Assembly (NCBI GenBank): GCA_041674205.1
Contig: JBAYWF010000001.1
Location: 149,003-213,002 of the forward strand
Length of the DNA stretch: 64,000 nt
Direction of reading: 5' to 3'
Source of the DNA: Parcubacteria group bacterium
Lineage (GTDB): Bacteria > Patescibacteriota > Minisyncoccia > Moranbacterales > UBA2206
The position numbers were made by a program, and so were the translations under genes. The notes under the pieces are model-generated. The model saw nothing but the letters and a program-made list of their open reading frames with translations. It was not told the DNA's origin and did not search any database. Every line of letters starts with the position of its first letter. Within the stretch, counting starts at the first letter, position 1. Below, piece after piece: positions 1 to 31,941 of this stretch.

Positions 1-689
1 CGCTAATCGCGGATACGCTGGCCCATGTTTCCCTGGCGGGCATCGCGATCGGATTGTGGCTGGGAATAAATCCCGTAGTGACGGCCATTATTTCCGCCGT
101 CGCCGCTTCTTTAGGCATTGAAAAACTGCGGACTTCCAAGCGGCTTTTCGGCGAGTCGGCGCTGGCGCTTTTTCTTTCCGGAAGCCTGGCTCTCGCAGTC
201 GTCATTTTGGGCTTGGCCAACGGTTTCAACGCCAGTCTGCTCAACTATCTATTCGGAAGCATCGTGACCGTGTCGGCGGCTGACGTGCGTATGATTTTTA
301 TTTTGGCATTCGTGGTGGTTTCGGTCTTGGGCATTTTTTATAAACAATTGGTCTATGTCACTTTCGATGAGGAAGCGGCTAGGATCAGCGGCGTTCCGAC
401 GCGCTTGGTGAATTCCATCCTGATCATCCTATCCGCCTTGACCGTGGCGCTGGCCATCCCGATTGTCGGAGTGCTTCTAATCTCGGCCCTCATCGTCATT
501 CCGGTGGTGACGGCGCTCCAGTTCAGGAAAAATTTCACCTGGACGATCATCTATGCCGAAGCCGTTTCACTTTTTTCCGTCATCGCGGGAATCTGGACCT
601 CTTTTTATTTCGATCTCGCGACCGGCGGTTCCATCGTCTTGGTTATGCTGGCGGTTTTCGCCGGCACGCTCGCTGTCCGGCGGCGCTGA
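1..689 (+). CDS. ABC-3 family metal (Zn/Mn) transporter permease, 5' partial (ZnuB/MntB/TroC-like)
   Basis: ORF runs off the 5' edge. It is polytopic and hydrophobic and carries the conserved ABC-3 permease motif FDEEAARISGV. TGA stop at 687-689. Confidence 0.75.
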   Translation, partial: LIADTLAHVSLAGIAIGLWLGINPVVTAIISAVAASLGIEKLRTSKRLFGESALALFLSGSLALAVVILGLANGFNASLLNYLFGSIVTVSAADVRMIFILAFVVVSVLGIFYKQLVYVTFDEEAARISGVPTRLVNSILIILSALTVALAIPIVGVLLISALIVIPVVTALQFRKNFTWTIIYAEAVSLFSVIAGIWTSFYFDLATGGSIVLVMLAVFAGTLAVRRR

Positions 690-898
690 AAAAGCCGTCG
701 ATTTCCACCGTCCCTGATTTTTTCCGAGGCTGTTTTTCCAATAGCAAGAACCGCTTGAAAAGCGGATTTTGCTTCGTATGCTAATATAAGATATATGGCA
801 TCGGCCATAAGAGTTATTTTTAGCGGCGGTCTTTTCTTTAACAACTTGAAAAAAAATGATATATCTATGCGTAATCCAGAAGGAGAGGAATTTTAGCT

Positions 899-1270
899 AT
901 GAAAGATGATGATGGGTTTTTAGTGTCGGATGGACAGCTTGAGAAGCTGATGAAAGATGATCGGTTCGTGCATTACGTGGGTATGTTTTTCCCGCCAAGG
1001 CCGGATATCGCAAAGTGTATCTTGTTGTCCCAGATGAAGTGCGTCCGTGACGCCCGGTCCCAAGAAGAAATTTTTACGGTACGGACCTCCGAATGGAACG
1101 GCGTGATATGGTCCATAGTCAGCGTGCTTGCTAGGTATAAGGATGTTATGGAGGAGGTCGCGGACAATTGCGGTGTCAAAGTTATCAAAGGAATTCCGGT
1201 TATGATCGACGCTGGCGATATCCGCTGGATGTTTCCAATTGATAACGGCCGGATTTTCACATTAGTTTGA
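899..1270 (+). CDS. hypothetical protein
   Basis: 123-aa ORF with a GGAGAGG RBS-like string 8-14 nt upstream of the ATG. I recognise no family. Confidence 0.4.
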   Translation: MKDDDGFLVSDGQLEKLMKDDRFVHYVGMFFPPRPDIAKCILLSQMKCVRDARSQEEIFTVRTSEWNGVIWSIVSVLARYKDVMEEVADNCGVKVIKGIPVMIDAGDIRWMFPIDNGRIFTLV

Positions 1271-1348
1271 TGGGCTGGCGGCAGTCCCTGCCGGTTTCCG
1301 GTATGGATCCCGGCGCACGGATCGCCGGCAAGAACCGACCTATTCCGA

Positions 1349-1397
1349 TCCGCCGGGCAGCAAACCTGTTCCGGCGGATTTTTATTTTTTTTTCAAG
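1349..1397 (+). terminator. rho-independent terminator
   Basis: 7-bp GC stem ccgccgg...ccggcgg followed by a long T-tract (atttttattttttttt). Confidence 0.5.
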
Positions 1398-1478
1398 CAT
1401 TTTCCAGCCTTGATTTTTTTTGGTCCGGCTGATATGCTTGCCATAGTCTGAAGTTTAAAAAATATCCAAGGAGGCTAT

Positions 1479-1610
1479 GATCCGCGTATTGGGATGATTT
1501 TTTTTTGAAAGGGTCGCTTGGTCGCTTATGTTTGCGCGGGGAGTCGAATGGCGAAACCGGTTTAGGTTGGAAAGTTGCGAAACTTTCCGGTTCTGGCCGG
1601 TTTTTTATTT
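1479..1610 (+). promoter_or_regulatory. conserved structured leader element, copy A (box1 gatccgcg.at.gg.atgatttttt; 46-nt box2 ggtcgcttatgt.tgcgcggggag..gaatggcgaaaccggtttag; hairpin; T-tract)
   Basis: Near-identical copy at 7993-8128. Box2 is 43/46 identical. The following hairpin differs in sequence but keeps its pairing (ggaaagtt/aactttcc versus gaaaagttt/aaacttttc), i.e. compensatory change. Both copies end in ccggtttttt and both sit directly upstream of + strand operons. Confidence 0.45.
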
Positions 1611-1643
1611 GCGGCAGCTGGATTTTCCAATAAATAAAACCCG

Positions 1644-3230
1644 ATGTATATACGATATCGAAAGGCGCAGACGGCCGGCAACGGTCCGCAAAATTCCTCT
1701 CCGGAGAGGATCGGTTTTGAAGAGGGCAAAAAGAAAAAACCCTTGAAAAAACCGATAAATTTCCGCGACTGCGCCTACTCCGGCGCCATCGGCAACGGTA
1801 TCCGTTACAAAGGGAATTATTTCGTGACTCACAGCGATCTGCCTCACCGGCATAGCGCCATCCAAACTTGCCAGCCTTACCAAAAAATCGTCCTATTGCT
1901 GATAGCTGGCCTGGTTTTGGCGGGAGCCCTGATGGATATCAAAAGCGCGCTGATCGTTGTGGTCGCCGTCTTGTCCGCTTTTTATTTTTTGGATCTGCTT
2001 TTTAATTTTTTTCTGATCATCAAAAGTTTCCAAAAATCGCGCGAGATAAAAATAACCGCCGCCGAGATAGGGGAGTTGGACGGCGAAAAACTTCCGGTGT
2101 ATACGATTTTTTGTCCGCTCTATAAAGAGTGGCAAGTCATCCCCCAATTCACCCGGGCCATTTCCAAAATCGATTGGCCGAAAGACAAATTGGATGTGCA
2201 GCTTCTTCTGGAAGAGGACGATCCCCAGACGATCGCGGAAGCGGAGAAGATGGATTTACCTGGTTATTTCCGGATTATCGTCGTACCGCATGGCCATCCG
2301 AAGACCAAGCCCAAAGCTTGCAATTACGGGCTGTGCCATGCCAAGGGGGAATATGCCGTTATTTTTGACGCGGAAGATATCCCTGATCCGGACCAATTGA
2401 AAAAAGCCTATCTGGCCTTCCGGAAACTCAAGGATGAAAAGGTCCTTTGCGTCCAAGCCAAACTTAATTTCTACAATGCCCGCCAAAATATCCTGACACG
2501 TTTTTTTTCGGCGGAATATGCCTTGTGGTTCAATCTGGTGCTGGTCGGGCTCCAATCGATCAAGTCGCCGATTCCGCTGGGCGGAACTTCCAACCATTTC
2601 CGCACGCGGGATCTGCAGCTGCTGAGCGGCTGGGATCCGTTCAACGTGACGGAGGATTGCGATTTGGGGATCCGGATCGCCAAATTGGGTTATCGCACCG
2701 AGATTTTCAATTCCAATACGATGGAAGAAGCGACCAGCAAAGTCGGCAATTGGATGCGCCAGCGTTCGCGCTGGATTAAAGGCTATATGCAGACGTATCT
2801 CGTGCATATGCGCCGGCCGTGTGAATTCGCGTCGGATCTCAGGAATCCGCAGGTTCTCACTTTCCAACTGGTAGTGGGCGGAAAAGTCCTTTCGATTTTC
2901 ATCAATCCGTTGATGTGGCTGCTGGTCATTTCCTATTTCTCTTTCCGCGCGACGATGGGCCCGCTCATCGAACCTTTGTATCCGAAGCCGGTTTTCTATA
3001 TTTCCATCTTCTCTTTGGTATTCGGGAATTTCCTGCAAGTCTATTATTATATGATCGGTTGCGCGAAGCGGGAACAGTGGGATATGATAAAATATGTTTT
3101 TCTGGTGCCGGTGTATTGGCTGATGATGAGCATCGCTTCCTGGAAGGCGCTGTGGCAATTGGTTTTCAAGCCCCACTATTGGGAAAAGACGGTGCACGGT
3201 TTCCATTTGGCAGTCAAAAAAAATGCGTAG
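1644..3230 (+). CDS. processive family-2 glycosyltransferase, cellulose/chitin/hyaluronan-synthase-like
   Basis: N-terminal TM segments, GT-A core (DAED, DCD-like motifs), the QRSRWIKG (QxxRW) motif of processive GT2 enzymes, and C-terminal TM helices. The exact start is uncertain and may lie downstream of 1644. Confidence 0.75.
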   Translation: MYIRYRKAQTAGNGPQNSSPERIGFEEGKKKKPLKKPINFRDCAYSGAIGNGIRYKGNYFVTHSDLPHRHSAIQTCQPYQKIVLLLIAGLVLAGALMDIKSALIVVVAVLSAFYFLDLLFNFFLIIKSFQKSREIKITAAEIGELDGEKLPVYTIFCPLYKEWQVIPQFTRAISKIDWPKDKLDVQLLLEEDDPQTIAEAEKMDLPGYFRIIVVPHGHPKTKPKACNYGLCHAKGEYAVIFDAEDIPDPDQLKKAYLAFRKLKDEKVLCVQAKLNFYNARQNILTRFFSAEYALWFNLVLVGLQSIKSPIPLGGTSNHFRTRDLQLLSGWDPFNVTEDCDLGIRIAKLGYRTEIFNSNTMEEATSKVGNWMRQRSRWIKGYMQTYLVHMRRPCEFASDLRNPQVLTFQLVVGGKVLSIFINPLMWLLVISYFSFRATMGPLIEPLYPKPVFYISIFSLVFGNFLQVYYYMIGCAKREQWDMIKYVFLVPVYWLMMSIASWKALWQLVFKPHYWEKTVHGFHLAVKKNA

Positions 3231-4509
3231 CGAAACGAACACAATCAAAGCTTTGTTCGCGGATGAATTTGCCAGAAGCAGCTCCATCTTCTTTTTCAGT
3301 TCCGCCGCCGCTGCTTTTTTGAATTATCTGTACCATCCTATCCTGGGCCGGCTGATGGATGTGGCGGATTTCGGCGAGGCGCAGGCGGCCATCTCGCTGT
3401 TTTTGCAATTCGGCGTCCTAGCGTCCGTCTTTTCTTTTTTCACTATCAGCCTGGCTTCCAATGCCGAGTCCGGCAAGTCAGGGGAAATGTCTTCCGTTAT
3501 CGCGGAGTTTCGGAAGCTTGCCGTGCTGGCGATTGCGGCGCTGGCCGTCGGTCTGGTTTTTTTCCATCAGGCAGTGAAGGAGTTTTTGAATTTTTCTTCT
3601 ATCTATCCGCTGCTGATCCTGATGTTGTTGTTATTGGCCAATGTGCTGTTCTCTTTCCGCCGGGCCTATCTGCAAGGAATGCGCAAAATCAAAAGCGTGT
3701 CCGCGGCGGATGTGATTTTTTCCGCTTCCCGCTTGTTTCTCGCAATCGCTTTCGTCTATGCCGGCTGGCGGTCGTCCGGAGCGGTCGCCGGTTTGCTGGC
3801 CGGACAGCTCATCGCTTTGGCCTATGTTTTTTCCAAAACCAAAGACGTCCTGGTTCCGGAAAATTGGAGCATCCTGCCGCGTTGGCGGCATCCCGCGTTC
3901 AGGCGGGAATTCAAATTCGGTTTGTTGGTGGCGGTAGCGGTTTTTTGCGTGACATTCTTTTACGCAAGCGATATCATTTTCGTGCGGCACTACTTTCCGG
4001 CGGAAGAAGCCGGTTTGTACGGCGGCATAGCGACGGTAGCCAGGATAATTTTTTTCGCTACCAGCCCGATAGTTATGGTGATGTTGCCGATGGTCAGGCT
4101 GAAAAATGTGCCGGAAAAAAACGCGGCGCTTTTCCGGAAAGCGTTCGCGGTAGTGGCCGTGCTCGGACTGGCCATAACGCTGGTCCTGCAGATTTTTCCA
4201 GAGTTCGTCATCAAGCTTTTGATTGGCGGGCGTTATGCCGTTTTCGCGCCGATTCTGCCGCGGCTGGGCTGGATGGTTTTTGCCGCCTCGCTGGCCAATC
4301 TGTTTTCCGCCTATTTCATCGCGCTTAGAAAATACACGCTGATCCCGATATCCCTCGCGTCCGTTTCGCTTACCGCGGTCCTGGCATTTTTTTTCCATAG
4401 CGATCCGATCCAGATAATAAACGATTTCATCTGCGGGCTGGCTCTTGTAATTTTTTTATCCTCCATAATATATGCGCAAAAAGATTTCTATCGTCATACC
4501 GGTCTATAA
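3223..4509 (+). CDS. polysaccharide biosynthesis membrane protein, Wzx/MOP-flippase-like
   Basis: 428-aa protein with about 12-14 predicted TM helices and Wzx-like architecture. Its start overlaps the upstream stop, which suggests operon coupling. Confidence 0.55.
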   Translation: MRSETNTIKALFADEFARSSSIFFFSSAAAAFLNYLYHPILGRLMDVADFGEAQAAISLFLQFGVLASVFSFFTISLASNAESGKSGEMSSVIAEFRKLAVLAIAALAVGLVFFHQAVKEFLNFSSIYPLLILMLLLLANVLFSFRRAYLQGMRKIKSVSAADVIFSASRLFLAIAFVYAGWRSSGAVAGLLAGQLIALAYVFSKTKDVLVPENWSILPRWRHPAFRREFKFGLLVAVAVFCVTFFYASDIIFVRHYFPAEEAGLYGGIATVARIIFFATSPIVMVMLPMVRLKNVPEKNAALFRKAFAVVAVLGLAITLVLQIFPEFVIKLLIGGRYAVFAPILPRLGWMVFAASLANLFSAYFIALRKYTLIPISLASVSLTAVLAFFFHSDPIQIINDFICGLALVIFLSSIIYAQKDFYRHTGL

Positions 4510-5410
4510 TGAAAAAGAAAACATCCGCCCGGTCTATGCCGGAGTGGAGGAGGTTATCCGGTCCGTCCCTGGCTACGAATTCGAAGTCATTTTCGTCAAT
4601 GACGGCAGTTCAGACGGGACTTGGAAGGAAATAATCAATCTGGCGGGGAGCGGAAAAGGGATCAAAGCTTTGAATTTCAGCCGCAATTTCGGGCATCAAG
4701 CCGCGATCGAAGCCGGGATGGCCAATGCCGGGGGAGCGGCGGTGATAACTATGGACGGGGATATGCAACATCCGCCGGAAATGATTCCCGAGCTGATCAG
4801 AAAATGGGAGCAAGGCTTTGAGATCGTGAATACCAAGCGGGAGGAAACCGAAGGTATCTCTTTTTTCAAAAAGATCGCTTCCGGCATTTTCTATCGCCTG
4901 CTAAACTGCATTTCCGAAGTGCATATCGAAAGCGGTTCGGCCGATTTCAGATTGATCGGCCGGCGGGCGATGGATGAATTGAACAAGCTGACGGAAAAAA
5001 ACAAATTCTACCGGGGTTTGATCAGCTGGATCGGATTTGAAAGCGCTATCGTGAAATATAAAGCGGGCAAGAGGCGGGGCGGAAAATCATCCTATACTTT
5101 CAACAAAATGCTGTCGCTGGCCAGGGTCGGCATAACCTCTTTCAGCATGCTTCCGATGAAAGTGATTTTTTTGTTCGGCGCGCTCCTTTTTTTCGGCGGA
5201 TTTTTGCTGACGGCCGGGATGGTTTTTTGGCGGTATTGCATCGGGTCGGCGCTGTTCAGCGGGACTGGGATATTGGCGGCTTTCATCATAATGAACAACG
5301 GTCTGTTTATGGTGATGCTCGGAATCGTTTCGATGTACCAGATCAATATGTGCAAGGAATTGCAGAACCGGCCGAACTACATCATCACTGAAAAAATAAA
5401 TCTCAACTAA
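4472..5410 (+). CDS. polyprenyl-phosphate glycosyltransferase (GtrB/ArnC/DPM1-like GT2)
   Basis: N-terminal GT2 core (IVIPVYNE, VIFVNDGSSDGT, DGDMQHPP) plus two C-terminal TM helices, as in GtrB/ArnC. Confidence 0.8.
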   Translation: MRKKISIVIPVYNEKENIRPVYAGVEEVIRSVPGYEFEVIFVNDGSSDGTWKEIINLAGSGKGIKALNFSRNFGHQAAIEAGMANAGGAAVITMDGDMQHPPEMIPELIRKWEQGFEIVNTKREETEGISFFKKIASGIFYRLLNCISEVHIESGSADFRLIGRRAMDELNKLTEKNKFYRGLISWIGFESAIVKYKAGKRRGGKSSYTFNKMLSLARVGITSFSMLPMKVIFLFGALLFFGGFLLTAGMVFWRYCIGSALFSGTGILAAFIIMNNGLFMVMLGIVSMYQINMCKELQNRPNYIITEKINLN

Positions 5411-5434
5411 CCATTAACCATCAAGATTAATATT

Positions 5435-6253
5435 ATGGATGAAAAAAAACCGGAAGTTTCCGTCCTGATGTCCGCGTACAATGAGGAAAAATATGTCAGC
5501 GCCGCCATCGAAAGCATCTTGGACCAGACCTATCGCGATTTCGAATTGATCGTCATCGATGATTGTAGCCGGGACGCGACTTGGAAGCTGATTGCCGGAT
5601 ATGCCGGGCGCGATCCGCGGGTGCGGGCGTCCAGGAATGAAAAAAATTTGGGGATTTCCAGCACGCTCAACAAGGGACTCGCGCTAGCCCGCGGGAAATA
5701 TATCGTCAAGATGGACGCGGACGATTGGTCCTACCCGGACCGTTTGGAAAAGCAAGTCAGGTTTATGGAAAAAAATCCCCAGGTCGCCATCAGCGGCGGT
5801 ACGATGGAAGTGTGTGATGAGGGGATGGTTGTCCTGAATAAGCGGCCGTACAACTTGACTGACCGGGAGATACGCCGGAAAATTTTCCTGTATAATCCGT
5901 TCTGCCATCCGGCGGTGATCTACCGGACGGACATCGCCAAAAGGGTCGGCGGCTATTGTTTGATCGATTCGGCCGGCGATTATGAATTGTATTTCAAGCT
6001 CGGATTGCACGGGGAGTTCGCTAATTTGCCGGATGTCCTGTTGAAATACCGGGTCAACCGCGGTTCCATTTCCGTCTATAAGGCGAGAAGCCAGGAGCGC
6101 GACACGCTGTATGTGCGGCTCAAGGCGGTTTTCGAATACGGCTACAGGATGCGTCCGGTCGATAAACTATATTTCGCCTGCCAGTTTTTGAGTATGTATC
6201 TCATCCCGCAACGGACCAAGGCCTGGATATTTAACCGGTTAAGAAGCAATTGA
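5435..6253 (+). CDS. family-2 glycosyltransferase
   Basis: VLMSAYNEEKYV, LIVIDDCSRD and KMDADD motifs identify a GT-A fold GT2. Confidence 0.8.
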   Translation: MDEKKPEVSVLMSAYNEEKYVSAAIESILDQTYRDFELIVIDDCSRDATWKLIAGYAGRDPRVRASRNEKNLGISSTLNKGLALARGKYIVKMDADDWSYPDRLEKQVRFMEKNPQVAISGGTMEVCDEGMVVLNKRPYNLTDREIRRKIFLYNPFCHPAVIYRTDIAKRVGGYCLIDSAGDYELYFKLGLHGEFANLPDVLLKYRVNRGSISVYKARSQERDTLYVRLKAVFEYGYRMRPVDKLYFACQFLSMYLIPQRTKAWIFNRLRSN

Positions 6254-7935
6254 TCACTATGGTCGGATTTTTTCAAAAAATCAGCGCGTCCTTCCGCAAA
6301 AACATATTGCCGGTCACTTTGGCCTTGGCGGTTTTTTTCAGTCTGGCCAGCTTCCTTTTTTTCTATTTGGACGGACAGCGGAACACCACCTATTTCGACG
6401 CGCAATCCCATCTCAATATGGCCCGCAAAATCGTGGACAATTTGAATCCCGGTTTGGGCCAGCTCGGCGGCTTGTGGCTGCCGCTTCTGCATCTTTTGAT
6501 GGTGCCGTTCATCTGGAATGATTTTATGTGGCATTCCGGTTGGGCGGGAGCTTGCGTTTCGATGCCGGCTTTCGTCCTGTCGGTCTATTTCGTTTTCAAG
6601 ACCGTCGAACTGCTTTTCCGCGATCGGACGGCGGCCTTTCTCGGCGCTTTGGTATATATGTCCAGTTTCAATATGCTTTTGCTCCAGAGTATGGCGATGA
6701 TGGAACCGCTATTCAATCTGACGATCATCGGCAGCATCTATTATCTTTCCCGCTGGGCCAGGACGGACAACTTGGTGGATCTGTCCGGCGGGGCTTTCTT
6801 TGTTTTTTTGAGCACGCTGACCCGCTATGAAGGCTACGCGGTTTTGGCGGCATCGGCCGCCGCCGTGCCCATCGTCACTTTCATAAAAAATTTCAACGCG
6901 TCTCATCGGTATCGGATCGTGGAAGGCAAATTCCTGATTTTTATGACGCTGGCGTCTTTCGGCGTCTTGCTGTGGCTGGCCTACTCGCTGGTGATTTTCG
7001 GCGATCCTTTGCATTGGACCCATCCTAATGCCGCGGATGTGGCAACGGTCGCTGAAACTGTCCGGAGCGGAAGCCCGTCCGAAATTATGCGCGGGGATCC
7101 TACGGATTATTACCGGCACGATTTGTCCAAGGCACTTCTGACATTTTGGTGGACCGCGGCCATCGGCAACGGTCTGGTGGTTTTTTTCGCGGGCATAGCG
7201 GGCTTCCTGTCGCTCTTGTGGTTTTGCGGGAGGAATATCCGCTATGCCTATCTGTTCATTCCGGCCGTGTTGGTTTCTGTCGCGTTTCCGCTGTTCATCC
7301 TGGTGCTGATGTATCTGGGCCAGGTTTCGCTCCTGCCGCCGTTCCTCGGTTTCGCCGGCATCTTCGACAAGGGGAATAATCTGGCTGACGAAGCCGGCAT
7401 CCGTTACACTCTCGCGATGCTGCCGCTCCTTGCGATTTTTATAGGCTGGCTGGCCGCGGGCGGAGCGTACCGTAAAATTACCGTTTTCCTGCTCATCGTT
7501 TTCCAAGTCGGCGCATTTTTTTCCGGACCGCTGTTCCTGACCTATGACCTTTCCTTGAAATGGGAAAGCGTGTACGGACAGGAAAACCGTTCGGTGGAAT
7601 GGTTCAAGGAAAATTATTCCGGCGGACTCATCCTGGCAAGCGCGTTGTCCCACGAGGCGGAAATTTTCCAGAACGGGCTGGCGTACAAGAACTATATCCA
7701 CGAGGGAACCGGCCATTATTGGGAAGAATCCTTGAAAAACCCGGTGCGTTACGCGACCTGGATAATTATGAACAAAAGCGCCAAGACGGACACGTCCGGC
7801 ATCTGGGGACAGGACATCCTGACCAACCGTTTCCGCAATTCAAAGGTCCTGCGGAACAATTTCGACTTGGTATATGATGACGGTAAAATTATGATTTACA
7901 AAATAAAAGCCAATAAGGAATTGCTCCATTTTTGA
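6250..7935 (+). CDS. GT-C fold membrane glycosyltransferase (ArnT/PMT/GT39-83-like), putative partner of the GtrB-like enzyme
   Basis: 561-aa polytopic protein with periplasmic loops. It sits in an operon with a polyprenyl-P-sugar synthase, matching the classical ArnC-ArnT / GtrB-GtrC logic. The family call is inference. Confidence 0.5.
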   Translation: MITMVGFFQKISASFRKNILPVTLALAVFFSLASFLFFYLDGQRNTTYFDAQSHLNMARKIVDNLNPGLGQLGGLWLPLLHLLMVPFIWNDFMWHSGWAGACVSMPAFVLSVYFVFKTVELLFRDRTAAFLGALVYMSSFNMLLLQSMAMMEPLFNLTIIGSIYYLSRWARTDNLVDLSGGAFFVFLSTLTRYEGYAVLAASAAAVPIVTFIKNFNASHRYRIVEGKFLIFMTLASFGVLLWLAYSLVIFGDPLHWTHPNAADVATVAETVRSGSPSEIMRGDPTDYYRHDLSKALLTFWWTAAIGNGLVVFFAGIAGFLSLLWFCGRNIRYAYLFIPAVLVSVAFPLFILVLMYLGQVSLLPPFLGFAGIFDKGNNLADEAGIRYTLAMLPLLAIFIGWLAAGGAYRKITVFLLIVFQVGAFFSGPLFLTYDLSLKWESVYGQENRSVEWFKENYSGGLILASALSHEAEIFQNGLAYKNYIHEGTGHYWEESLKNPVRYATWIIMNKSAKTDTSGIWGQDILTNRFRNSKVLRNNFDLVYDDGKIMIYKIKANKELLHF

Positions 7936-7992
7936 TTGCGTGGTATATTTATAACATACCAGGGAATCATAGAGCCATGTTTAAAATGTGAT

Positions 7993-8128
7993 GATCCGCG
8001 CATCGGAATGATTTTTTGGTGAGTATATATTGGTCGCTTATGTGTGCGCGGGGAGCTGAATGGCGAAACCGGTTTAGACCGAAAAGTTTTTTTAAACTTT
8101 TCAGTTTGAGCCGGTTTTTTGTTTTTTG
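7993..8128 (+). promoter_or_regulatory. conserved structured leader element, copy B
   Basis: Same box1, box2, hairpin and T-tract as 1479-1610. It lies about 135 nt upstream of the TasA-like operon. Confidence 0.45.
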
Positions 8129-8260
8129 AAAACAACCTCATTTTAATATATTTAAAGGTCGAGGCGGAAACTGCCATAAGTTTCAAAATTTTTATTCCGA
8201 TTCATAAAATAGGAATAAAAAATAATTTTAATCAGCGCTTAATAAATAATAAAAAAAACT

Positions 8261-9442
8261 ATGAAAAAAATGATCAAAAGCGGGCTCATCGTGCTTGCGG
8301 TCGCTGCGATTGCCGGGTATGGAACATACTCGTTCTTCAGCGACACAGAAACATCGACGGGAAACAATTTTACCGCAGGAGAAATCGACCTGACCGTAAC
8401 CCATACTGACAGCGCTACGGACGGCGCTTGTACGTTTGACAATACATCAGGCGGACCGATTTTTAATTGTACCGATGTAAAACCTGGGGACGCAGGTGAA
8501 AGCACGTTGACATTCAACCTTACAAGCAACCCTGCTTGGGCATGTATGTATGTGGATAATGTCGTTGATAGCGATAATGGATGCAATGATCCGGAATTGG
8601 CCGCTGAATCAGTTTGTGCGGTAGATGGAAATGGTGAATTGGACGACGCTTTGATGCTTACTGTTTGGGTTGACGATGGGGTTGGAGGTGGAATAGTATG
8701 CAATAATATCCGAGACGGATCGGAACAAATAATTATAGAAGATCAGTCATTGAGCTCTTTCGTGTTACCAACAGGAGGCTATGTCCTTCCTATTTCAGAC
8801 GCGAGTGCCGATTCTATGATGGCTGATCCAGTCCAACCGGGTGACCATTGTGTCGGTGTCGCGTGGAGTGTCGATCCAACGGCAGGAAACGAAGTGCAGA
8901 CGGATAAATTAGGCGGTGATCTGACCTTCTATGTTGAACAGGCAAGAAACAATGATGGATTCACATGCGCGGCACATTTCACGCCTGCGGAAGGAGTGCA
9001 AACATTGACTCTTGAAAATGAGATACAGAATCCGACAGGACCTTGGACACCGATTACCGGTGACGGGATACAAGGAACATTAGCTTGGCAAGGAGATGGA
9101 GATACATTTGATTACACTCTAGCTGCGCAAGGATTACCCGCTAATTCATCATACAGTTTGATTTATTATGCTGATCCTTACCCAGGTAATAATCCAGGTA
9201 AATTAATCGGAACACACATGACCGATGGAGGTGGCAACATCAATGCTGCTGGAAATCCAGATCTAGGAATGGATTTGCCAGATCCTGCAGATGCTAACTT
9301 CGGGACTGGTGCTAAGATTTGGTTGATTCCAAGCAGTGCATATGATGCTGCGAGCAGTAGTATCATTTCTTGGACACCAGATACTACTACCTGGTTGTTC
9401 GAAGGTAATGTTTACATCCATTACAACGATACGAATAACTAA
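8261..9442 (+). CDS. TasA/camelysin-like secreted protein with SipW-cognate signal peptide (paralog 1)
   Basis: The N-terminus AIAGYGTYSFFSDTETSTGNNFTAGEIDL resembles the B. subtilis TasA signal/cleavage region (TWAAFNDIKSKDATFASGTLDL). It shares internal motifs VKPGDAGE...AWACM and ADLTFYVEQARNN with paralog 2. Confidence 0.7.
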   Translation: MKKMIKSGLIVLAVAAIAGYGTYSFFSDTETSTGNNFTAGEIDLTVTHTDSATDGACTFDNTSGGPIFNCTDVKPGDAGESTLTFNLTSNPAWACMYVDNVVDSDNGCNDPELAAESVCAVDGNGELDDALMLTVWVDDGVGGGIVCNNIRDGSEQIIIEDQSLSSFVLPTGGYVLPISDASADSMMADPVQPGDHCVGVAWSVDPTAGNEVQTDKLGGDLTFYVEQARNNDGFTCAAHFTPAEGVQTLTLENEIQNPTGPWTPITGDGIQGTLAWQGDGDTFDYTLAAQGLPANSSYSLIYYADPYPGNNPGKLIGTHMTDGGGNINAAGNPDLGMDLPDPADANFGTGAKIWLIPSSAYDAASSSIISWTPDTTTWLFEGNVYIHYNDTNN

Positions 9443-9553
9443 ACAAGATGTAGTCTTTCACTTCCGCTCATTTTCAAAATGGGCGGGAGAATAAAGATCT
9501 AAGGATAATTAATTACTTGCATAAGTAAGTACCTAAGTAAGTATTAAAACAAT

Positions 9554-10897
9554 ATGGTGAAAATATTGAAAAGCCTTACAATCGTCATTGCCATCGCGGC
9601 CATCGCGGGGGGAGCATCCTATTCGTTTTTCTCCGACACGGAAACGTCGACTGGCAATATGTTCACGGCGGGGGTTATCAATTTAAAAATTGATAATTCA
9701 AGTTATGCCATAGATTCTGTTATTCCTGGGTTTGATGATCCGGTGGGAGATTTGGTTGCGAGTCCGCACAATACCTGGTCCTATGACAACCTCACCGATC
9801 AACTATTTTTCAATTTTGAAGATTTGAAACCGGGGGATATAGGGGAAGACACGATCGGTTTGCAAGTTTCCAGTAATGACGCTTGGGCGTGCATGAAGGT
9901 GGACATAACGGACACTCCTGAAAATGATTTGATAGATCCGGAAGCGGAAGCGGGGGACAAGACGGAAAAGAACGGGGAGCTTCAAGATGAGCTAAGTTTC
10001 GCTTTTTGGGCGGATGACGGGGACAATGTATATGAAGATGAGGAAGTCATGCTTGACGACGGCAATCCAGGCATATTTTTAGAAGGAAAAGCCGCGGATA
10101 TTTTCAAAAATAAATTTATTACGCTGGCTGATTCAACGACTGATGTGTGGCCTGGCGGCAATGGACATCCGATAATTGCAGGCGAAAATTATTATATTGC
10201 TAAGGTTTGGTGCTTTGGAGAATTGACCCCGGCACCTGTCTCATCCGGAGATGGAGATCCTCTCCATCGCGGAACCGGATTTTTATGTGATGGAGACTCA
10301 GTTTCCAGCGCGTCTCAAACGGATGGGATAAAAGCGGATGTGACGTTTTATTCGGAACAAGCCAGGAACAATCCGCAGTTCGTTTGTTATCAGCAGGAGT
10401 GTTCGGCTGATGCTGTCTATACGTCAGAGGTCGTAAGTAATATCCAAGGCACGCTTAATGACGGTAGTCCCGTCATTGATCCGGATCGGACTGACCCGGA
10501 TGAAGCCAATGGTCCGCCGGATTGGGTTAGCGGAACCGGTACGAACTTTTATAGTCTGGGTAAGGATGGGACGGTGACTTTGAAATTTGCCGATATGGTC
10601 GGCAATGGTAATGGAAATGACCTCGCTGTCTATGAAGTGACCAATGGGCGCGATTCATATCCGCTGGAAAGTGCGGATGTGGAAGTGAGTCTCAATGGAA
10701 AGACTTGGTATCCTGTCGGCGTAGCTACGAGTGAACCTGGTGGGGATGGCGTTTCATATTTTGACATATCTTCCACCCCTCTTTCAATGTTCAAATATGT
10801 AAGACTGGCTGATTCGACTGATTTCTCTTTGCACAACAGTATTTCCGACGGGTTTGACTTGGATGCGGTTGGCGCTATCTACGGGGAATGTGAATAA
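9554..10897 (+). CDS. TasA/camelysin-like secreted protein with SipW-cognate signal peptide (paralog 2)
   Basis: N-terminus AIAGGASYSFFSDTETSTGNMFTAGVINL, plus LKPGDIGEDTIGL...AWACMKVD and ADVTFYSEQARNN motifs. Confidence 0.7.
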   Translation: MVKILKSLTIVIAIAAIAGGASYSFFSDTETSTGNMFTAGVINLKIDNSSYAIDSVIPGFDDPVGDLVASPHNTWSYDNLTDQLFFNFEDLKPGDIGEDTIGLQVSSNDAWACMKVDITDTPENDLIDPEAEAGDKTEKNGELQDELSFAFWADDGDNVYEDEEVMLDDGNPGIFLEGKAADIFKNKFITLADSTTDVWPGGNGHPIIAGENYYIAKVWCFGELTPAPVSSGDGDPLHRGTGFLCDGDSVSSASQTDGIKADVTFYSEQARNNPQFVCYQQECSADAVYTSEVVSNIQGTLNDGSPVIDPDRTDPDEANGPPDWVSGTGTNFYSLGKDGTVTLKFADMVGNGNGNDLAVYEVTNGRDSYPLESADVEVSLNGKTWYPVGVATSEPGGDGVSYFDISSTPLSMFKYVRLADSTDFSLHNSISDGFDLDAVGAIYGECE

Positions 10898-10944
10898 TCA
10901 TTGCTAAATAGGTGTCCCATTGCGTGTTATAAAAATATATCTCA

Positions 10945-12027
10945 ATGAGTAAAATTCTAACAAGATTTTCTAGAAACCTGATTATAGCCATTTTTATTTT
11001 AGCTATGGGGGGATATGAGACGTATGCTTGTGTCGTGCAAGGCAAGGAGCCTTTTTGGCATAACTTTCCCGATAAGAAATTGGATTTGGAGATAAGTTAT
11101 GCCGGATATTATAATAAGGATGCCGACAACCATCCTAATGCGGGAAGCTGGCGGCAACAGGACCTGACTACGCAGAAATTTTTTGATTTCTATGATATCA
11201 AACCGGGCGATTTCGGTGAGGGCACAATCGGTTTGCGCCTCAAACACCAAGACGCTTGGGGTTGTGCTACCATCCGTCCGACCGAAAACGATGATAACGG
11301 CTCCACTGAACCGGAATTGCTCGAGGATGCGCAAAATGCGGCAGCTGATAAATGGGATGGCGAGTTGGCGAAAAAAATTAATTTTAAGATCTGGGCCGAT
11401 GTTTGTTCGAAAAGATATGTGAAAGCGGGCGATAACGTTTTTCAGCCTGATTGCGATCGGCTTATAACCAGCGGTACCGGTCCGTTGCAGGAGCTTAACT
11501 TGGTTTTGGCTGACGCTGAAAATCCGAATGTTTTCAATGGGAATATAGGACCGCTCAAAAAAAACAAAAACTATTATATAGGCGTAGATTGGAATATCGA
11601 TTCGGATGTCGGCAATATCATCCAAACTGATTCATATAAGGCAGACATAACTTTTTTTGTCCAGCAGTCGGACGGCAACCAGGACTTCCGTTGCGCGGAT
11701 ATCCGTAATGATGATCCGGATAAATGCGCGGATGGCGCCATACGCAATTGTTATTCAGGTGATTTCGATAAAATCGATATCGGCATCTGTCGAAGCGGGA
11801 CTGAAGCTTGCGTTCAAGGAAATTGGGGAAATTGTTCCGGAGAGATTTTACCTGACAAGGAAATCTGCAAAGACAATCTGGATAACGACTGTGACGGGCA
11901 AATCAATAAAGGATGCCCGCCGATATGCCAGCGCGTGAGTGATTGCGATGACCACAATTCAAAAACCGATGACAACTGCGTGAACAAAGAATGCGTGCAT
12001 GCGGAGAAAAAGAACTTAAAGCGGTAA
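10945..12027 (+). CDS. TasA-like paralog 3 with C-terminal Cys-rich MopE-like putative metal-binding domain
   Basis: Shares IKPGDFGEGTIGL...AWGCATI and ADITFFVQQSDGN with paralogs 1 and 2. It has a different hydrophobic N-terminus. The C-terminal ~110 aa carry about 16 Cys, including CKDNLDNDCDGQINKGC (a C-x-DG-x-DNDCDG signature). Confidence 0.6.
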   Translation: MSKILTRFSRNLIIAIFILAMGGYETYACVVQGKEPFWHNFPDKKLDLEISYAGYYNKDADNHPNAGSWRQQDLTTQKFFDFYDIKPGDFGEGTIGLRLKHQDAWGCATIRPTENDDNGSTEPELLEDAQNAAADKWDGELAKKINFKIWADVCSKRYVKAGDNVFQPDCDRLITSGTGPLQELNLVLADAENPNVFNGNIGPLKKNKNYYIGVDWNIDSDVGNIIQTDSYKADITFFVQQSDGNQDFRCADIRNDDPDKCADGAIRNCYSGDFDKIDIGICRSGTEACVQGNWGNCSGEILPDKEICKDNLDNDCDGQINKGCPPICQRVSDCDDHNSKTDDNCVNKECVHAEKKNLKR

Positions 12028-12050
12028 CACATAAGATAATATGAAAAGAT

Positions 12051-12707
12051 ATGCTAGATAAAATTTTTAAAATTTTAAAAAATCTCATTTGGACTGCAAT
12101 CGTCGCATTTCTGATTTTGATCGGCATAACATTCATTCCGATCAAAGGAAATTACAAGGTTTATACGGTACAATCAGGTTCGATGGAGCCAGCTATCCAT
12201 ACCGGCAGTTTGATTTTTGTCAAAAGCCAGGAGGATTACAACGTCGGTGACATTGTAACGCGGGCGACCAAAGATCCAAGAGTGACTGTCACGCATCGTA
12301 TCATTTCTAAAAAAACGGAAGGTAGTAAGGTAGTATTTGAAACCAAAGGAGATGCTAATGAGGATCCAGATAGGGAAAGCGTAAGCCAAGATAGGATTAT
12401 CGGCAAGGAATTTTTTCAGATACCGTATATCGGTTATCCAGTCGGATATGCTCGGACGATGCCAGGATTCATCATTCTTATAATTATCCCAGCTGTAATT
12501 ATCGTTTATGAAGAGATTAGGAAAATCAAAGAAGAAATCGTGAATATTTGGAAAAAGAAAAATGGGAAAGAAGATCTGCCTGCGGAAGATCATTTATTGG
12601 AAAAGAAATATGTTCGGGTGTCGAGAGAAGATAATATCTCAAATATAAGTTTTGAAACTAAGGAAAATCAGACTAAGAAAGAAAAAATCAGTCGGAAAAA
12701 AAGATAA
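12051..12707 (+). CDS. sipW: signal peptidase I, archaeal/eukaryotic type (SipW-like, S26B)
   Basis: N-terminal TM anchor, catalytic Ser motif VQSGSMEPAI, conserved His in VTHRIIS, and KGDANEDPD box. It has a Lys-rich C-terminal tail. Confidence 0.8.
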   Translation: MLDKIFKILKNLIWTAIVAFLILIGITFIPIKGNYKVYTVQSGSMEPAIHTGSLIFVKSQEDYNVGDIVTRATKDPRVTVTHRIISKKTEGSKVVFETKGDANEDPDRESVSQDRIIGKEFFQIPYIGYPVGYARTMPGFIILIIIPAVIIVYEEIRKIKEEIVNIWKKKNGKEDLPAEDHLLEKKYVRVSREDNISNISFETKENQTKKEKISRKKR

Positions 12708-12722
12708 TTCTTTTAAGGAGGT

Positions 12723-13181
12723 TTGCGCGGGCCATATAAAAAACATTCAAATATGAAAGAGATTTACAAATCATTGGCACGGATTTCCATCGTAACCTTT
12801 CTGGTTGTTTTTTTCTTTGATATGAATCGTATTATTGGCACTAATTCTTCTTTTGGTGATATGGAATTGTCTTCAGATAATTCGTTTGTTGCTGGAAAGT
12901 GGGAGGAAAAAACAGATGCCATACTCAAAATCAAAGATCTTAGTTTGCCTGAAGATAAATTGGACACGGTAATTTTTCCTACGATAAGCGAGCAAGTTGA
13001 CAGTCCGCTATCTGAGCCGTCCTTGCCTGTGGATGATGATGTTTATGCTCAAGAAGAGGTTCCCAATGAAGAGGTTCAGAGTGTTCTTGATGCTGAAGAT
13101 CCGGTAGAACAGGAGCAACCTTTGCCATCGGATGAGTCGGACGCTCCGGCTGTGGATGGAGAGGAACAGGAATCATTGTGA
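12723..13181 (+). CDS. small SipW-cognate secreted protein with acidic C-terminal tail (TapA-like accessory candidate)
   Basis: TM/signal segment then GTNSSFGDMELSSDNSFVAG, the same motif class as the TasA-like N-termini. The C-terminal half is strongly acidic (D/E/P-rich). Start is uncertain: TTG at 12723 or ATG at 12753. Confidence 0.5.
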   Translation: MRGPYKKHSNMKEIYKSLARISIVTFLVVFFFDMNRIIGTNSSFGDMELSSDNSFVAGKWEEKTDAILKIKDLSLPEDKLDTVIFPTISEQVDSPLSEPSLPVDDDVYAQEEVPNEEVQSVLDAEDPVEQEQPLPSDESDAPAVDGEEQESL

Positions 13182-18588: not shown

Positions 18589-20877
18589 ATGCCTAAACAT
18601 AAAAAAAACCAGCAACGGGGCGGAGCCGATCGGCAAGCCGCAAACGCATCGGGATCCTTGCGTTTTTTTCCCGGATCTCAGATTGAAAAAACGGTCAAAC
18701 TGCTGCTTTGGTTGCTTCCGTTCGTTCCCCTGGCCAGCTGGAAATATTTTTTCTTTCCGTATATTTCAATCAAACTTTTCATAGTCTATATCCTGAGCGA
18801 GGCGGTCTTCGGTTTGTATCTGATTTTGTGTTTTTCGGATAGGAGTTATCTGCCGGATTTCCATTGCAAAGATGGGCAGGGCGGAAAAAGTAAAAATTGG
18901 ATTTTGATCAGTCTGGCGTCCTATATGGCGGTTTTGGTCCTGACTACCTTTTTTTCCGTGGACATTTCCAAAAGCTTTTTCGGCAGTATCAGTTCTATGA
19001 ACGGACTGCTGACCGTGCTGCATTTTTTCCTGCTGTTCGTGGTTTTTTCCCGGGCATTCATCGATCGGAAATTCTGGATTATTTTCTTTCGCGCCAATAT
19101 GCTCGTCGGAATTTTTATCTCCGTTTGCGCGCTGTTCCAAAAGATGGGCGGTTCGGCATCGCCGATGGTGACCTTTGGAAATCCGGCCTATCTTTCCGGT
19201 TATCTTGTTTTGATCATCTTCCAGGCGATGGCTTTGTTCTGGTGGGATAACCGGAATAATTGGAAAATAGCGCATCTGATCGCCGGAATCATCAGTATGT
19301 CGGTGGTATTCTTAGCTGTCGATATCCGCGGTTCGCAACTAGGTGTCGCAACCGGCTTGCTCGCGGCGGTTTTGCTATACGGCTTGGCGAATGAAAAAGA
19401 AATAATCAGGAAGGTTTTCCGCTGGACATTCCTGGCCGGATTGGTGATGGCGGTGGCGATTTCCTTTTATGCGATAAGTTCAGGCAAGATTTATTCTTTT
19501 TTTGGGCGGTCATATACCGTTAAAACCCGTCTGGTAGCTTGGGAATCAGGACTGCGCGGATTCGGCGACAAATTTTTGACCGGCTACGGCTTGGAAAATT
19601 ATACGGTGCCGTTTGAAAAATATTTCCAGCCGACCTATTACAACCAAGGCAGGGGCAGTGCCACGGAATTCGGTGCGGATTCCCCGCATAATAAGGTTAT
19701 CGAGGTGGCGGTTTCTAATGGGATTTTCGGCGTAGCGGCTTATTTAGGGATATTCGCGGCTGTTTTCCATCTGATTTATGCGCGATATCTGGTTTCGCGC
19801 CGGAAAATTTTTCTGGGCCTGGCCGGACTTTTCAGCGCTTATTTCGTGCATCTGCTCTTTATTTTTGATACGGTGTCCGCTTCCTTGCTATTTTTCCCAT
19901 CCCTGGCCTTTTTGATTTTCGTATCGTGCGGGGACGGGATCGGTTCGGCGGGAAAAGAAAAACAGACCGGACTGTCTTTCGGCAAAATGGCTTCTGTCGC
20001 TGGAGCCGTCGCGATAATTTTCTGTGTCGCGGCTTTCTATTTCGTCTGGAAACCGGCCAAGGCGGTCCGGTATGCCAACATTGCCATAAACTCAGCCAAG
20101 GCTGGAAAATATGCTGAAGCTGCGGATGGATTGGACAGCCTGCGTCGGGAAAATGTCTATGCGGTGGAAGAAAGCGCTATTTTGGAAATCGGCAAAATAA
20201 CCCAGATCAATTTTTTCAACAAAACCGATTTCACCGGGGATGACAAAAAATATTTTGAAAAAATAATCGGACTGGCGGAATATAATCTGCGGCGCAATCC
20301 GGACAATCTGCATTATTACATCGAATTGGCTTCGTTGTATGACCGGGCCGGCCGCTATGACCAGAGCTATTACGGGAAAAATATCGAGCTTTTGGAAAAG
20401 GACCTGCAAAAAGGCACTAAAAGGGTGGAGGCCTATATGATGTTGGCCGATGCTTATGGCGCGACCGGCAACCGGGCCAGGGCGGAAGAATTGGGCCGGG
20501 CCGGAGTGGCGCTGGATCCGACCTACGGCTACGGCTATTTCTTGCTGGGCAATATTTATTTTTACAGGCTGGATGACGCGGGCAAGGCCGATGAGAATTT
20601 CGAAAAAGCTTTCGAATACGGATATAAAAACGTGAATTCTTTGAAATCCTACGCGGATGTGAACGTGAAGACCGGCAACCTGCCTAAAGCTATTTTCGCT
20701 TTTGAAGAACTCATCAAGCTCAATCCAAAAGATCCGCAACAGTATGCCAATCTGGCCATGCTCTATCTGAGCAACAAAGACTACCAAAAGGCGCGGGATA
20801 TGGCGGAGAAAACCAAGCGGAAATTTCCCGGCACCCAGGCCCAGATCGACGCATTCCTAAAAATAATTCCCAAATAA
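18589..20877 (+). CDS. O-antigen ligase/polymerase-like (Wzy_C) membrane protein fused to C-terminal TPR repeats
   Basis: About 10 TM helices with Wzy_C-like periplasmic loop region, then about 250 aa of TPR-like repeats (YYIELASLY..., AYMMLADAY..., YANLAMLYL...). Confidence 0.6.
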   Translation: MPKHKKNQQRGGADRQAANASGSLRFFPGSQIEKTVKLLLWLLPFVPLASWKYFFFPYISIKLFIVYILSEAVFGLYLILCFSDRSYLPDFHCKDGQGGKSKNWILISLASYMAVLVLTTFFSVDISKSFFGSISSMNGLLTVLHFFLLFVVFSRAFIDRKFWIIFFRANMLVGIFISVCALFQKMGGSASPMVTFGNPAYLSGYLVLIIFQAMALFWWDNRNNWKIAHLIAGIISMSVVFLAVDIRGSQLGVATGLLAAVLLYGLANEKEIIRKVFRWTFLAGLVMAVAISFYAISSGKIYSFFGRSYTVKTRLVAWESGLRGFGDKFLTGYGLENYTVPFEKYFQPTYYNQGRGSATEFGADSPHNKVIEVAVSNGIFGVAAYLGIFAAVFHLIYARYLVSRRKIFLGLAGLFSAYFVHLLFIFDTVSASLLFFPSLAFLIFVSCGDGIGSAGKEKQTGLSFGKMASVAGAVAIIFCVAAFYFVWKPAKAVRYANIAINSAKAGKYAEAADGLDSLRRENVYAVEESAILEIGKITQINFFNKTDFTGDDKKYFEKIIGLAEYNLRRNPDNLHYYIELASLYDRAGRYDQSYYGKNIELLEKDLQKGTKRVEAYMMLADAYGATGNRARAEELGRAGVALDPTYGYGYFLLGNIYFYRLDDAGKADENFEKAFEYGYKNVNSLKSYADVNVKTGNLPKAIFAFEELIKLNPKDPQQYANLAMLYLSNKDYQKARDMAEKTKRKFPGTQAQIDAFLKIIPK

Positions 20878-22265: not shown

Positions 22266-22267
22266 TC

Positions 22268-24459: not shown

Positions 24460-24569
24460 AAAAAGCTCGGTTACTTCATAATTACTTACTATTATACACT
24501 TTTTCGCTTTTTTCCGCCTCTGTTTCGTGATATATTTAGGATAGCTTATGGAAAATCGGCTTAAATCCT

Positions 24570-30815: not shown

Positions 30816-31319
30816 TCACCACTCAAGAATAAATTTTGATGGTGCCAACTTTTCGTCCGCCAGGGAGTTTTTGATTAGGAATTCTTTTTTTCCGTCATGA
30901 GACCGGATCGTATAAAGTCCCAACCAAACCAACTCAAAAACTTCCTGGTGTTGGTTTTCTGGAACCACCTCCTTCAGTTTGTTTTTGAAAACACTTTCAG
31001 TAATGCCGAGACAGGGTATCATGGGATCGATACTATCAGTCTCTTCGAGGGCTTTTTTATAAAAACTCTCGAAAAGTTGCAGATCTGCCCACTCATAGTT
31101 TGTCTCCGCTGGAGTGTCAGCGTCAAAAGGCTCAAATACTCCGAGGGCTTGCACTACCTCTTTTCTGCCACAAAATTTCCTTCTTCTCTTAAAATATAAA
31201 TACCAAGAAGAAGGATTTTCCGGAGCCTGCTCAAGCCTTGCTGAAACAAATGCCCTTCGTTTTGGCATATTATTAAATGCCTTGACTGCTTCAAGAATAG
31301 CCTCTTCATAGTTTTTCAT
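30816..31319 (-). CDS. hypothetical protein (cassette gene 3)
   Basis: 167 aa, with an AGGAGG RBS on the minus strand (ccctccttg on +). Confidence 0.45.
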   Translation of the reverse strand: MKNYEEAILEAVKAFNNMPKRRAFVSARLEQAPENPSSWYLYFKRRRKFCGRKEVVQALGVFEPFDADTPAETNYEWADLQLFESFYKKALEETDSIDPMIPCLGITESVFKNKLKEVVPENQHQEVFELVWLGLYTIRSHDGKKEFLIKNSLADEKLAPSKFILEW

Positions 31320-31350
31320 GGCTGCACCCTCCTTGTTCTTGTTTTTAAGA

Positions 31351-31426: not shown

Positions 31427-31428
31427 AG

Positions 31429-31836: not shown

Positions 31837-31860
31837 GGTTCCTCCTAGGTTTTTTTGAAG

Positions 31861-31936: not shown

Positions 31937-31941
31937 ACCCT

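Follow-up and report, generated by a model that had tools for sequence, protein, structure and literature searches.

A leader of about 150 nucleotides occurs in two direct copies on the plus strand of a 64,000-nucleotide stretch of the genome of a Parcubacteria group bacterium (GenBank assembly GCA_041674205.1, contig JBAYWF010000001.1, positions 149,003 to 213,002; hereafter the window), a member of the Moraniibacteriota within the Candidate Phyla Radiation (CPR). Copy A precedes an operon for glycan synthesis (operon A), and copy B precedes an operon encoding TasA-like fibre proteins and a SipW-type signal peptidase (operon B). As judged from sequence and covariation, the two copies are probably riboswitches of cyclic di-GMP class II (c-di-GMP-II), each with a terminator, that would switch on both operons together. 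An initial annotation of this DNA had proposed that the same leader precedes both operons and that this shared cis-regulatory element links a glycan pathway to a secreted fibre system. The repeat search, MAFFT and blastn agree on the two copies, and the shared element can be specified further as a predicted c-di-GMP-II-class aptamer followed by an intrinsic terminator.

The repeated leader and its aptamer fold

Copy A (1477-1610) and copy B (7991-8124) are 78% identical across 136 nucleotides with 2 gaps (blastn over the whole window, E 3.7e-25), and their conserved core, GGGGAGNNNAATGGCGAAACC, occurs exactly twice in the window when up to 3 mismatches are allowed, with 0.09 occurrences expected by chance. 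A repeat had been annotated at 7993-8128 and is present there, but the functional element is larger, extending over approximately 7977-8127 in copy B and 1462-1610 in copy A, because the 5′ strands of helices P1 and P2 lie upstream of the strictly conserved block. Copy A ends 38 nucleotides before the first gene of operon A, and copy B is separated from the start of operon B by 135 nucleotides.

Both copies match the full length (model positions 1-86) of RF03169, the c-di-GMP-II-GAG family of Rfam clan CL00127 (RF01786, RF03169 and RF03170), with 31.6 bits for copy A and 34.9 bits for copy B (local E 1.6e-4 and 2.9e-5) and a gathering cut-off of 40. Across 4227 Rfam families, these were the only matches with E ≤ 1 in the 64 kb (E 0.037 for copy A and 0.0054 for copy B); the whole window gave no match at the gathering threshold, and the relationship is visible with E-value thresholds only. 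Scores for the canonical c-di-GMP-II family, RF01786, were lower than those for RF03169. Three features probably keep the scores below gathering: a P3 loop of 42 nucleotides, an insertion of one nucleotide, and a P1 that is imperfect and rich in AU. The Rfam gathering thresholds are passed by relatives that share the core: a locus of Candidatus Doudnabacteria (L073) scores 44.8 bits and the L030 relative 55.6 bits on RF03169, and L124, the core of which is identical to that of the window copies, scores 57.5 bits on canonical RF01786 (cut-off 53.5). The window copies thus lie in a continuum with validated family members, and the leader is likely to be a c-di-GMP class II riboswitch of divergent sequence that carries its own terminator and adds a sub-threshold member to a known class.

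Nested helices P1, P2 and P3 stand in the family order in both copies and are kept by covariation. Aptamer A (1462-1569, plus strand; 115.8 bits with the clade model R1 described below) pairs 1464-1471 with 1561-1567 (P1), 1473-1475 with 1543-1545 (P2) and 1482-1489 with 1532-1539 (P3), with a kink-turn (k-turn) linker, UAUGAU (1476-1481), opposite GGA (1540-1542); its pseudoknot joins the loop GGUCGCU (1520-1526) to GGCGAAACC (1550-1558), with A1555 and A1556 bulged. Aptamer B (7977-8081, plus strand; likewise 115.8 bits with R1) pairs 7979-7985 with 8073-8079 (P1), 7987-7989 with 8055-8057 (P2, in which two of the three pairs form) and 7996-8003 with 8044-8051 (P3); its k-turn linker, GAUGAU (7990-7995), lies opposite GGA (8052-8054), and its pseudoknot joins GGUCGCU (8032-8038) to GGCGAAACC (8062-8070), with A8067 and A8068 bulged. 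Copy A also carries the pseudoknot loop motif as a tandem duplicate (GGTCGCTT GGTCGCTT, 1512-1527), giving two possible pseudoknot partners, and two GGTCGCTT motifs are likewise found in the P3 loops of the unrelated metagenome loci L127, L135 and L140.

This architecture is like that of RF01786, with P1, P2, the k-turn signature (C-stem, 3-nucleotide bulge, GA opposite GA) and P3 in the same order, a pseudoknot that joins the P3 loop to the 3′ tail and leaves two adenines bulged, and a position 5′ of surface or adhesion genes. The canonical riboswitch was reportedly described by Lee et al. in 2010, the crystal structure 3Q3Z is said to be of the Clostridium acetobutylicum RNA, and its structure paper reportedly places a k-turn in the class II aptamer. 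In the window the k-turn was seen as a sequence signature and not as geometry (GGC-UAU-GA opposite GA-GUC in copy A and UGU-GAU-GA opposite GA-GCU in copy B), and the same signature runs across the family alignment. Unlike RF01786, the window copies have the loop GGUCGC and tail GCGA in place of the canonical GGGCAC and GUGC, one extra nucleotide between the P2 3′ strand and the tail, an AU-rich P1 and a P3 loop of approximately 42 nucleotides, and they come from a CPR bacterium, whereas most known members of the class are from Clostridia and their relatives. With RF03169 they share the GGUCGC loop and the core GGGGAG...UGGCGA.ACC, but they differ from it in the tail (GCGAAACC, not GCGAGACC), in a 3-nucleotide instead of a 2-nucleotide spacer after GGGGAG, and in the expanded P3 loop.

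Covariation was assessed in a clade alignment of five Moraniibacteriota copies: the two window copies, one each from the loci L021 and L028, and a more divergent copy (L157-C) from the extended L021 genome. The tested structure comprised the helices of the Rfam alignment plus the pseudoknot, and alignments with the 3′ partners slid served as control. Across P1, P2, P3 and the pseudoknot, 92% of cells pair (28-49% in the slid controls); the pseudoknot, GGUCGCU with GGCGA-AA-CC, is paired in 100% of cells; and five pairs carry double-sided changes, of which P2 has two and P1, P3 and the pseudoknot have one each. In L157-C, P3 changes from CCGCGC/GCGCGG to CCGUGC/GCACGA, with a C-G pair replaced by U-A, and the pseudoknot changes from loop GGUCGC and tail GGCG to GGUUGC and GGCA, with the pair again kept as U-A. 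The terminator hairpin is paired in 92% of cells (24-55% when slid) and has 3 compensatory pairs.

A covariance model (R1) was built from the five Moraniibacteriota aptamers only (L073 was left out, its 5′ half having been misaligned by MAFFT), and it recovers Rfam-validated RNAs of other phyla at full length with E 1e-7 to 1e-3. In a filters-off scan of the window with R1, the two copies score 115.8 and 115.7 bits, and the next match scores 15 bits. In the 56-sequence R1 alignment 94.8% of cells are paired (34-43% when slid) and 244 cells show double changes; none of 500 shuffles reaches the observed values. These figures lean towards the structure because the alignment was fitted to R1.

These results bear on a reading of the leader as an intergenic repeat that was duplicated passively (a terminator with debris, or a MITE- or REP-like element), senses no ligand and resembles Rfam models fortuitously. 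Sub-threshold Rfam scores speak for it, as does the lack of the element at close CPR homologues of the GT2, TasA and GH81 genes, from which it follows that the element is recent and dispensable for those genes. Yet both copies independently match one riboswitch model at full length and are the sole such matches in 64 kb; compensatory changes maintain P1, P2, P3, the pseudoknot and the terminator; the reciprocal covariance-model search recovers validated riboswitches; the copies always lie 5′ of a co-directional operon; and inverted termini or target-site duplications were not noted. We regard a passive repeat as very improbable.

Each copy contains a six-codon open reading frame (ORF) on the plus strand, ATGATCCGCGTATTGGGATGA at 1477-1497 encoding MIRVLG* and ATGATCCGCGCATCGGAATGA at 7991-8011 encoding MIRASE*, as the initial annotation had given them. 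Mini-ORF A runs from within the k-turn linker through the P3 5′ strand into the beginning of the P3 loop and coincides with the Rfam consensus segment uauGAccCgcG, which in the Rfam alignments is the 3-nucleotide bulge and the G-A of the k-turn-like linker, then the P3 5′ strand; mini-ORF B holds the same position in its aptamer and has no Shine-Dalgarno sequence. Because the frame coincides with the k-turn linker and the P3 5′ strand, the nucleotide sequence is conserved and the peptide is not, in keeping with the non-synonymous codon differences between the copies and with the earlier preference for conservation at the nucleotide level. The mini-ORF thus reads as a k-turn/P3 strand, not as a peptide. 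Copy A alone has a strong Shine-Dalgarno-like stretch, AAGGAGG (1468-1474), which lies 2 nucleotides 5′ of the mini-ORF ATG and within the P1/P2 5′ strands; its equivalent in L021 is AAGAGGA.

Leader-peptide attenuation, in which translation of the six-codon frame governs the downstream terminator, could draw on that stretch and its L021 equivalent, but it is scarcely credible: no Shine-Dalgarno sequence precedes the frame in copy B or L157-C, and L028 reads GTG; three of the six residues differ between the peptides, and the frames contain no regulatory codons; the mini-ORF ends approximately 55 nucleotides 5′ of the 5′ arm of the terminator; and its ATG lies within a k-turn linker that is conserved family-wide, including in high-GC members without any ORF. 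Readings as a leader peptide, a mobile repeat, or an EAR or antiterminator-protein system were rejected, and the window has no Rfam EAR match.

Overlapping terminators and the predicted switch

RNAalifold predicts a terminator at the end of each leader. Terminator A (1553-1610, plus strand) is a 22-base-pair bulged hairpin (1553-1577 with 1580-1604) followed by a U-run, and terminator B (8065-8127, plus strand) is a long hairpin (8065-8091 with 8094-8118) followed by UUUUUUGUUUUUU. In both, the 3′ strands of the pseudoknot and of P1 fall within the 5′ arm of the hairpin, so that aptamer and terminator are mutually exclusive; the compact Doudnabacteria relative (L073) has the same overlap. The minimum free energy structure of the full leader consists of P3 plus the terminator, at -46.6 kcal/mol for copy A and -50.5 kcal/mol for copy B.

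Each leader appears to be transcribed from its own promoter. Putative promoter A (1410-1438, plus strand) consists of TTGATT, a 17-nucleotide spacer including TG, and TATGCT, with the extended -10 element TGaTATGCT at 1430-1438; putative promoter B (7921-7949, plus strand) consists of TTGCTC, 17 nucleotides and TGgTATATT (extended -10, 7941-7949), and shares sequence with the stop codon of operon A's final gene. These candidate extended -10 boxes lie 20-30 nucleotides 5′ of each P1. The block GCTGATATGCT..CATAGTCTGAAGTTT of putative promoter A is conserved in L021, and L028 reads TGcTATAAT at the position aligned to putative promoter B. A consensus promoter and terminator scan flagged only sites within aptamer A and missed the bulged terminators and both putative promoters, so the promoters were assigned by eye.

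In the proposed mechanism, the leader RNA would be transcribed from its own promoter and the aptamer would fold as P1, P2, k-turn and P3, with the P3 loop GGUCGC pairing with the 3′ tail GCGA-AA-CC in the pseudoknot and the two bulged adenines forming the ligand pocket. In the ligand-free default state the far more stable hairpin would form and transcription would terminate 5′ of the operon. If c-di-GMP were bound co-transcriptionally, the aptamer would capture the shared nucleotides, no terminator would form and transcription would read through into the operon, making the cassette an ON switch that acts by antitermination. As the same cassette precedes each operon, both would be switched jointly, and high c-di-GMP would turn on the glycan pathway and the TasA-like/SipW fibre system together. 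The analysis shows the repeat, a fold kept by covariation, the relationship to the family, the overlap with the terminator and the gene contexts, whereas the identity of the ligand as c-di-GMP, the polarity of the switch and the two promoters are inferred.

Two known systems offer comparisons. In Clostridioides difficile, several c-di-GMP-II riboswitch copies, 5′ of pilA1 and of adhesin genes, turn on surface genes by relieving termination; the targets there are type IV pili and sortase substrates, whereas here they are TasA-like fibres and glycosyltransferases, and the phylum and the aptamer subtype also differ. ON-type control is known for the c-di-GMP-II class (PMC9495366, PMC7583470), and C. 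difficile has documented c-di-GMP-II switches of the ON type that act on transcription (PMC9495366). The proposed co-control of an exopolysaccharide and a TasA/SipW fibre operon is also like the matrix regulon of Bacillus subtilis (eps and tapA-sipW-tasA, under SinR). There, however, a protein repressor couples the operons and EAR is a processive antiterminator inside eps, whereas in the window the same predicted ligand-sensing RNA cassette stands at the 5′ end of each operon.

Target operons, gene contexts and the ligand

Operon A (1644-7935, plus strand) comprises five genes with overlapping or abutting ORFs, annotated by Pfam, NCBIfam and hydropathy as encoding a cellulose/PNAG-synthase-like GT2, a Polysacc_synt flippase, a PgfS/ArnC-like GT2, an EpsE-like GT2 and a polytopic membrane protein of 561 amino acids with approximately 10 hydrophobic segments. 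Operon B (8261-13181, plus strand; Pfam PF12389, TIGR04088 and TIGR02228) encodes three TasA/camelysin-like proteins with SipW-dependent signal peptides and camelysin-like N-termini, and a SipW-type signal peptidase I (TIGR02228, 120 bits). The first protein of the operon matches the entry 'TasA family protein [Parcubacteria group bacterium]' at 100% identity, and a PDB sequence search with it gave nothing useful. The last (12723-13181; 152 amino acids) has no family match and a SipW-type signal-like N-terminus (SSFGDMELSSDNSFVAG), and could be an additional substrate of SipW or an accessory protein of the fibre. The gene content of both operons is as initially annotated, except that the GT-C label of the 561-amino-acid protein could not be verified, the protein having no Pfam, NCBIfam or PDB match. 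We note that the 5′ untranslated region of the first TasA-like gene (tasA1) carries, 3′ of the riboswitch terminator, two hairpins (GGCGGAAACUGCC and UUAUUCC...GGAAUAA, at 8163-8175 and 8192-8218), both of which L028 retains. In L155 the first recurs as a CGCGGGUACUGCG variant in the interval separating two TasA-like genes. The hairpins could be an RNA stability or processing element.

Relatives of the leader were collected by pattern scans of GTDB genomes (at least 118 loci, mostly Actinomycetota aptamers among the matches listed, the window's own genome not being one of these) and of metagenomes (32 loci, none a close CPR relative). Pfam places same-core aptamers of other phyla directly 5′ of GGDEF and EAL proteins (L030 and relatives), and others 5′ of camelysin/TasA-like proteins (L128), a Flp pilin (L139), a degenerate GGDEF protein (L148) and a response-regulator receiver (L073). 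At motif level, approximately 12 of the 32 metagenome loci have GGDEF/EAL genes and 4 of 32 encode TasA-like N-termini. On high-GC metagenome contigs, two or three tandem c-di-GMP-II-type aptamers precede camelysin/TasA-like genes (L128:218-471; L144:1783-2198, minus strand; L147:4-385), so the link between this riboswitch and TasA-like genes recurs outside the CPR. RF03169 members among the matches listed are mostly from Actinomycetota and Chloroflexota-like lineages, often in tandem and often followed by terminators. The window copies lie 5′ of surface genes (glycan and TasA/SipW) and have an expression platform in their terminators. This gene context is the one expected of c-di-GMP riboswitches.

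The binding core is informative about subtype. The canonical RF01786 consensus has the loop UGGGCAC and the tail GUGCAACC, where the window copies have GGUCGC and GCGAAACC; by position, the pseudoknot differs from the canonical one in two pairs, each swapped with compensation (G-C for A-U and U-A for G-C), and the unpaired AA before CC is kept in both window copies, as in the canonical class. The RF03169 consensus tail, GCGAGACC, has G at the first bulged position, where both window copies read A, so that the copies would appear to lack the mark of the GAG subtype. Going by the consensus lines, 'GAG' in the family name seems to denote these tail positions, and if so, the window RNAs would keep the canonical bulge. 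Among the aptamer-like matches listed, the GAA tail state occurs 111 times and GAG 36 times.

A switch with the fold and terminators described above might nevertheless respond to a different ligand, if the GAA subtype sensed another guanine-containing nucleotide, such as 3′3′-cyclic GMP-AMP (3′3′-cGAMP), pGpG or another cyclic dinucleotide. The variant family RF03169, not canonical RF01786, gives the highest-scoring Rfam match, and RF03169 was set apart since its binding-site nucleotides differ; two pseudoknot pairs (U-A, and a swapped G-C) are unlike the canonical consensus; and the window encodes no diguanylate cyclase by regular-expression and Pfam searches. Set against this, the window copies have A, not the G of the GAG consensus, at the bulge position; L124, with its identical core, passes canonical RF01786; and about one-third of same-core aptamers lie directly 5′ of GGDEF-EAL genes, whose products synthesize and break down c-di-GMP, and this is the classic context of a c-di-GMP riboswitch. 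Another ligand is therefore unlikely, though well short of negligible.

Several points weigh against c-di-GMP-II riboswitches as the identity of the two leaders. Both copies fall under the Rfam gathering cut-off, P1 is AU-rich with mismatches, P2 of copy B has two of its three pairs, and the P3 loop of approximately 42 nucleotides compares with approximately 17 in the consensus. Clade-level covariation comes from five sequences only. The nearest-neighbour energy of the aptamer state is approximately 0 kcal/mol, against -47 to -50 kcal/mol for the terminator-containing structure of the whole leader, so that switching has to be kinetic and rely on tertiary and ligand contacts. GGDEF, EAL, HD-GYP and PilZ domains were not found among approximately 55 proteins of the 64-kb window, part of a 322-kb contig (Pfam and regular expressions), or in approximately 80 kb of related CPR loci, which are a small fraction of the genomes. 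In the 3Q3Z structure, one guanine of c-di-GMP takes part in a minor-groove triple with an A-U pair (PMC7583470). Because two pseudoknot pairs differ from the crystallized class II RNA, ligand specificity is unreadable from sequence alone.

Spread of the cassette and its meaning for CPR bacteria

The CPR loci among the matches listed are L021 and L028 from Candidatus Moraniibacteriota and L073 from Candidatus Doudnabacteria. L021 is 85% identical in DNA to window positions 1-3638, and its GT2 is 93% identical. In L028 (JAUXSI010000028.1, 1100-1500, minus strand), a B-type leader and TasA-like genes come immediately after the same upstream genes, with no intervening glycan operon; the glycan operon with copy A is therefore an insertion/deletion polymorphism at this locus. 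The extended L021 genome (L157; GCA_030679995.1, JAUXSK010000018.1) has an A-type leader preceding the glycan operon, and its next operon, in place of the TasA-like one, encodes a GH81 enzyme, a 682-amino-acid protein and a cellulose-synthase-like GT2. This GH81 operon is preceded by a third copy of the riboswitch and terminator (L157-C, at L157:16330-16477), which has diverged further; otherwise invariant core bases are changed in it (GAGGAG, GGCAAAACC), with the compensatory changes in P3 and the pseudoknot described above. Copies in front of unrelated genes, which the initial annotation had named as the mark of a generic repeat, were looked for, and the sole further clade copy among the matches listed is this one, preceding a polysaccharide operon.

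No riboswitch was found 5′ of CPR homologues of the GT2 at 76-77% amino acid identity (L151 and L152), of TasA at 61-68% identity (L155 and L156) or of GH81 at 56-61% identity (L159-L162). Because these more distant homologues are without the element, the cassette is confined to a narrow clade. Within it, the targets comprise at least three different surface-polymer operons (glycan, TasA/SipW and GH81/glucan-synthase), in combinations that differ among three sister genomes. Rather unlikely is the bolder proposal that a self-contained cassette has been copied before different surface operons in this clade and forms a young c-di-GMP attachment regulon in a reduced-genome episymbiont.

Other features of these loci were seen in passing. 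The Doudnabacteria locus contains, at L073:152-2323 (minus strand), a TOTE conflict-system AEP primase fused to a helicase, beside a serine-recombinase-like gene, and this is probably a mobile defence island unrelated to the riboswitch. Two further glycan clusters in the window lack a leader copy, one at 18589-25691 (a Wzy_C/TPR protein, a Bac_transf priming transferase and GT4 enzymes) and one at 51757-54327 (GT4, GT2 and a PAP2-like protein). A second intergenic repeat of 86 nucleotides (31342-31427 and 31852-31937; 88% identical) ends in a GC-rich hairpin (GGGCAAGCG...CGCTTGCCC), and its copies lie 5′ of two small minus-strand ORFs (30816-31319 and 31429-31836) without Pfam matches.

For riboswitch biology, c-di-GMP riboswitches 5′ of adhesion or matrix genes are the classic arrangement and thus expected; the CPR host and the evident copy-and-paste spread of the cassette among surface operons add modest interest, and Rfam cut-offs miss AU-rich, loop-expanded c-di-GMP-II members such as these. 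Gene regulation in CPR bacteria (Patescibacteria) is little known. A search of one paper library found no paper on c-di-GMP or GGDEF proteins in this group, and a 2024 perspective mentions riboswitches only as possible future genetic tools (PMC11665869). In this Moraniibacteriota bacterium the cassette pair would probably constitute a matrix or attachment programme, and a riboswitch that gates glycan and TasA-like fibre operons would offer a testable handle on how an ultra-small bacterium might decide on attachment or matrix building. If the proposed attachment regulon is real and the genome encodes no diguanylate cyclases, the RNA would sense a host-derived nucleotide or another ligand, and sensing of a host-derived nucleotide would be a new way for CPR bacteria to detect contact with their hosts.

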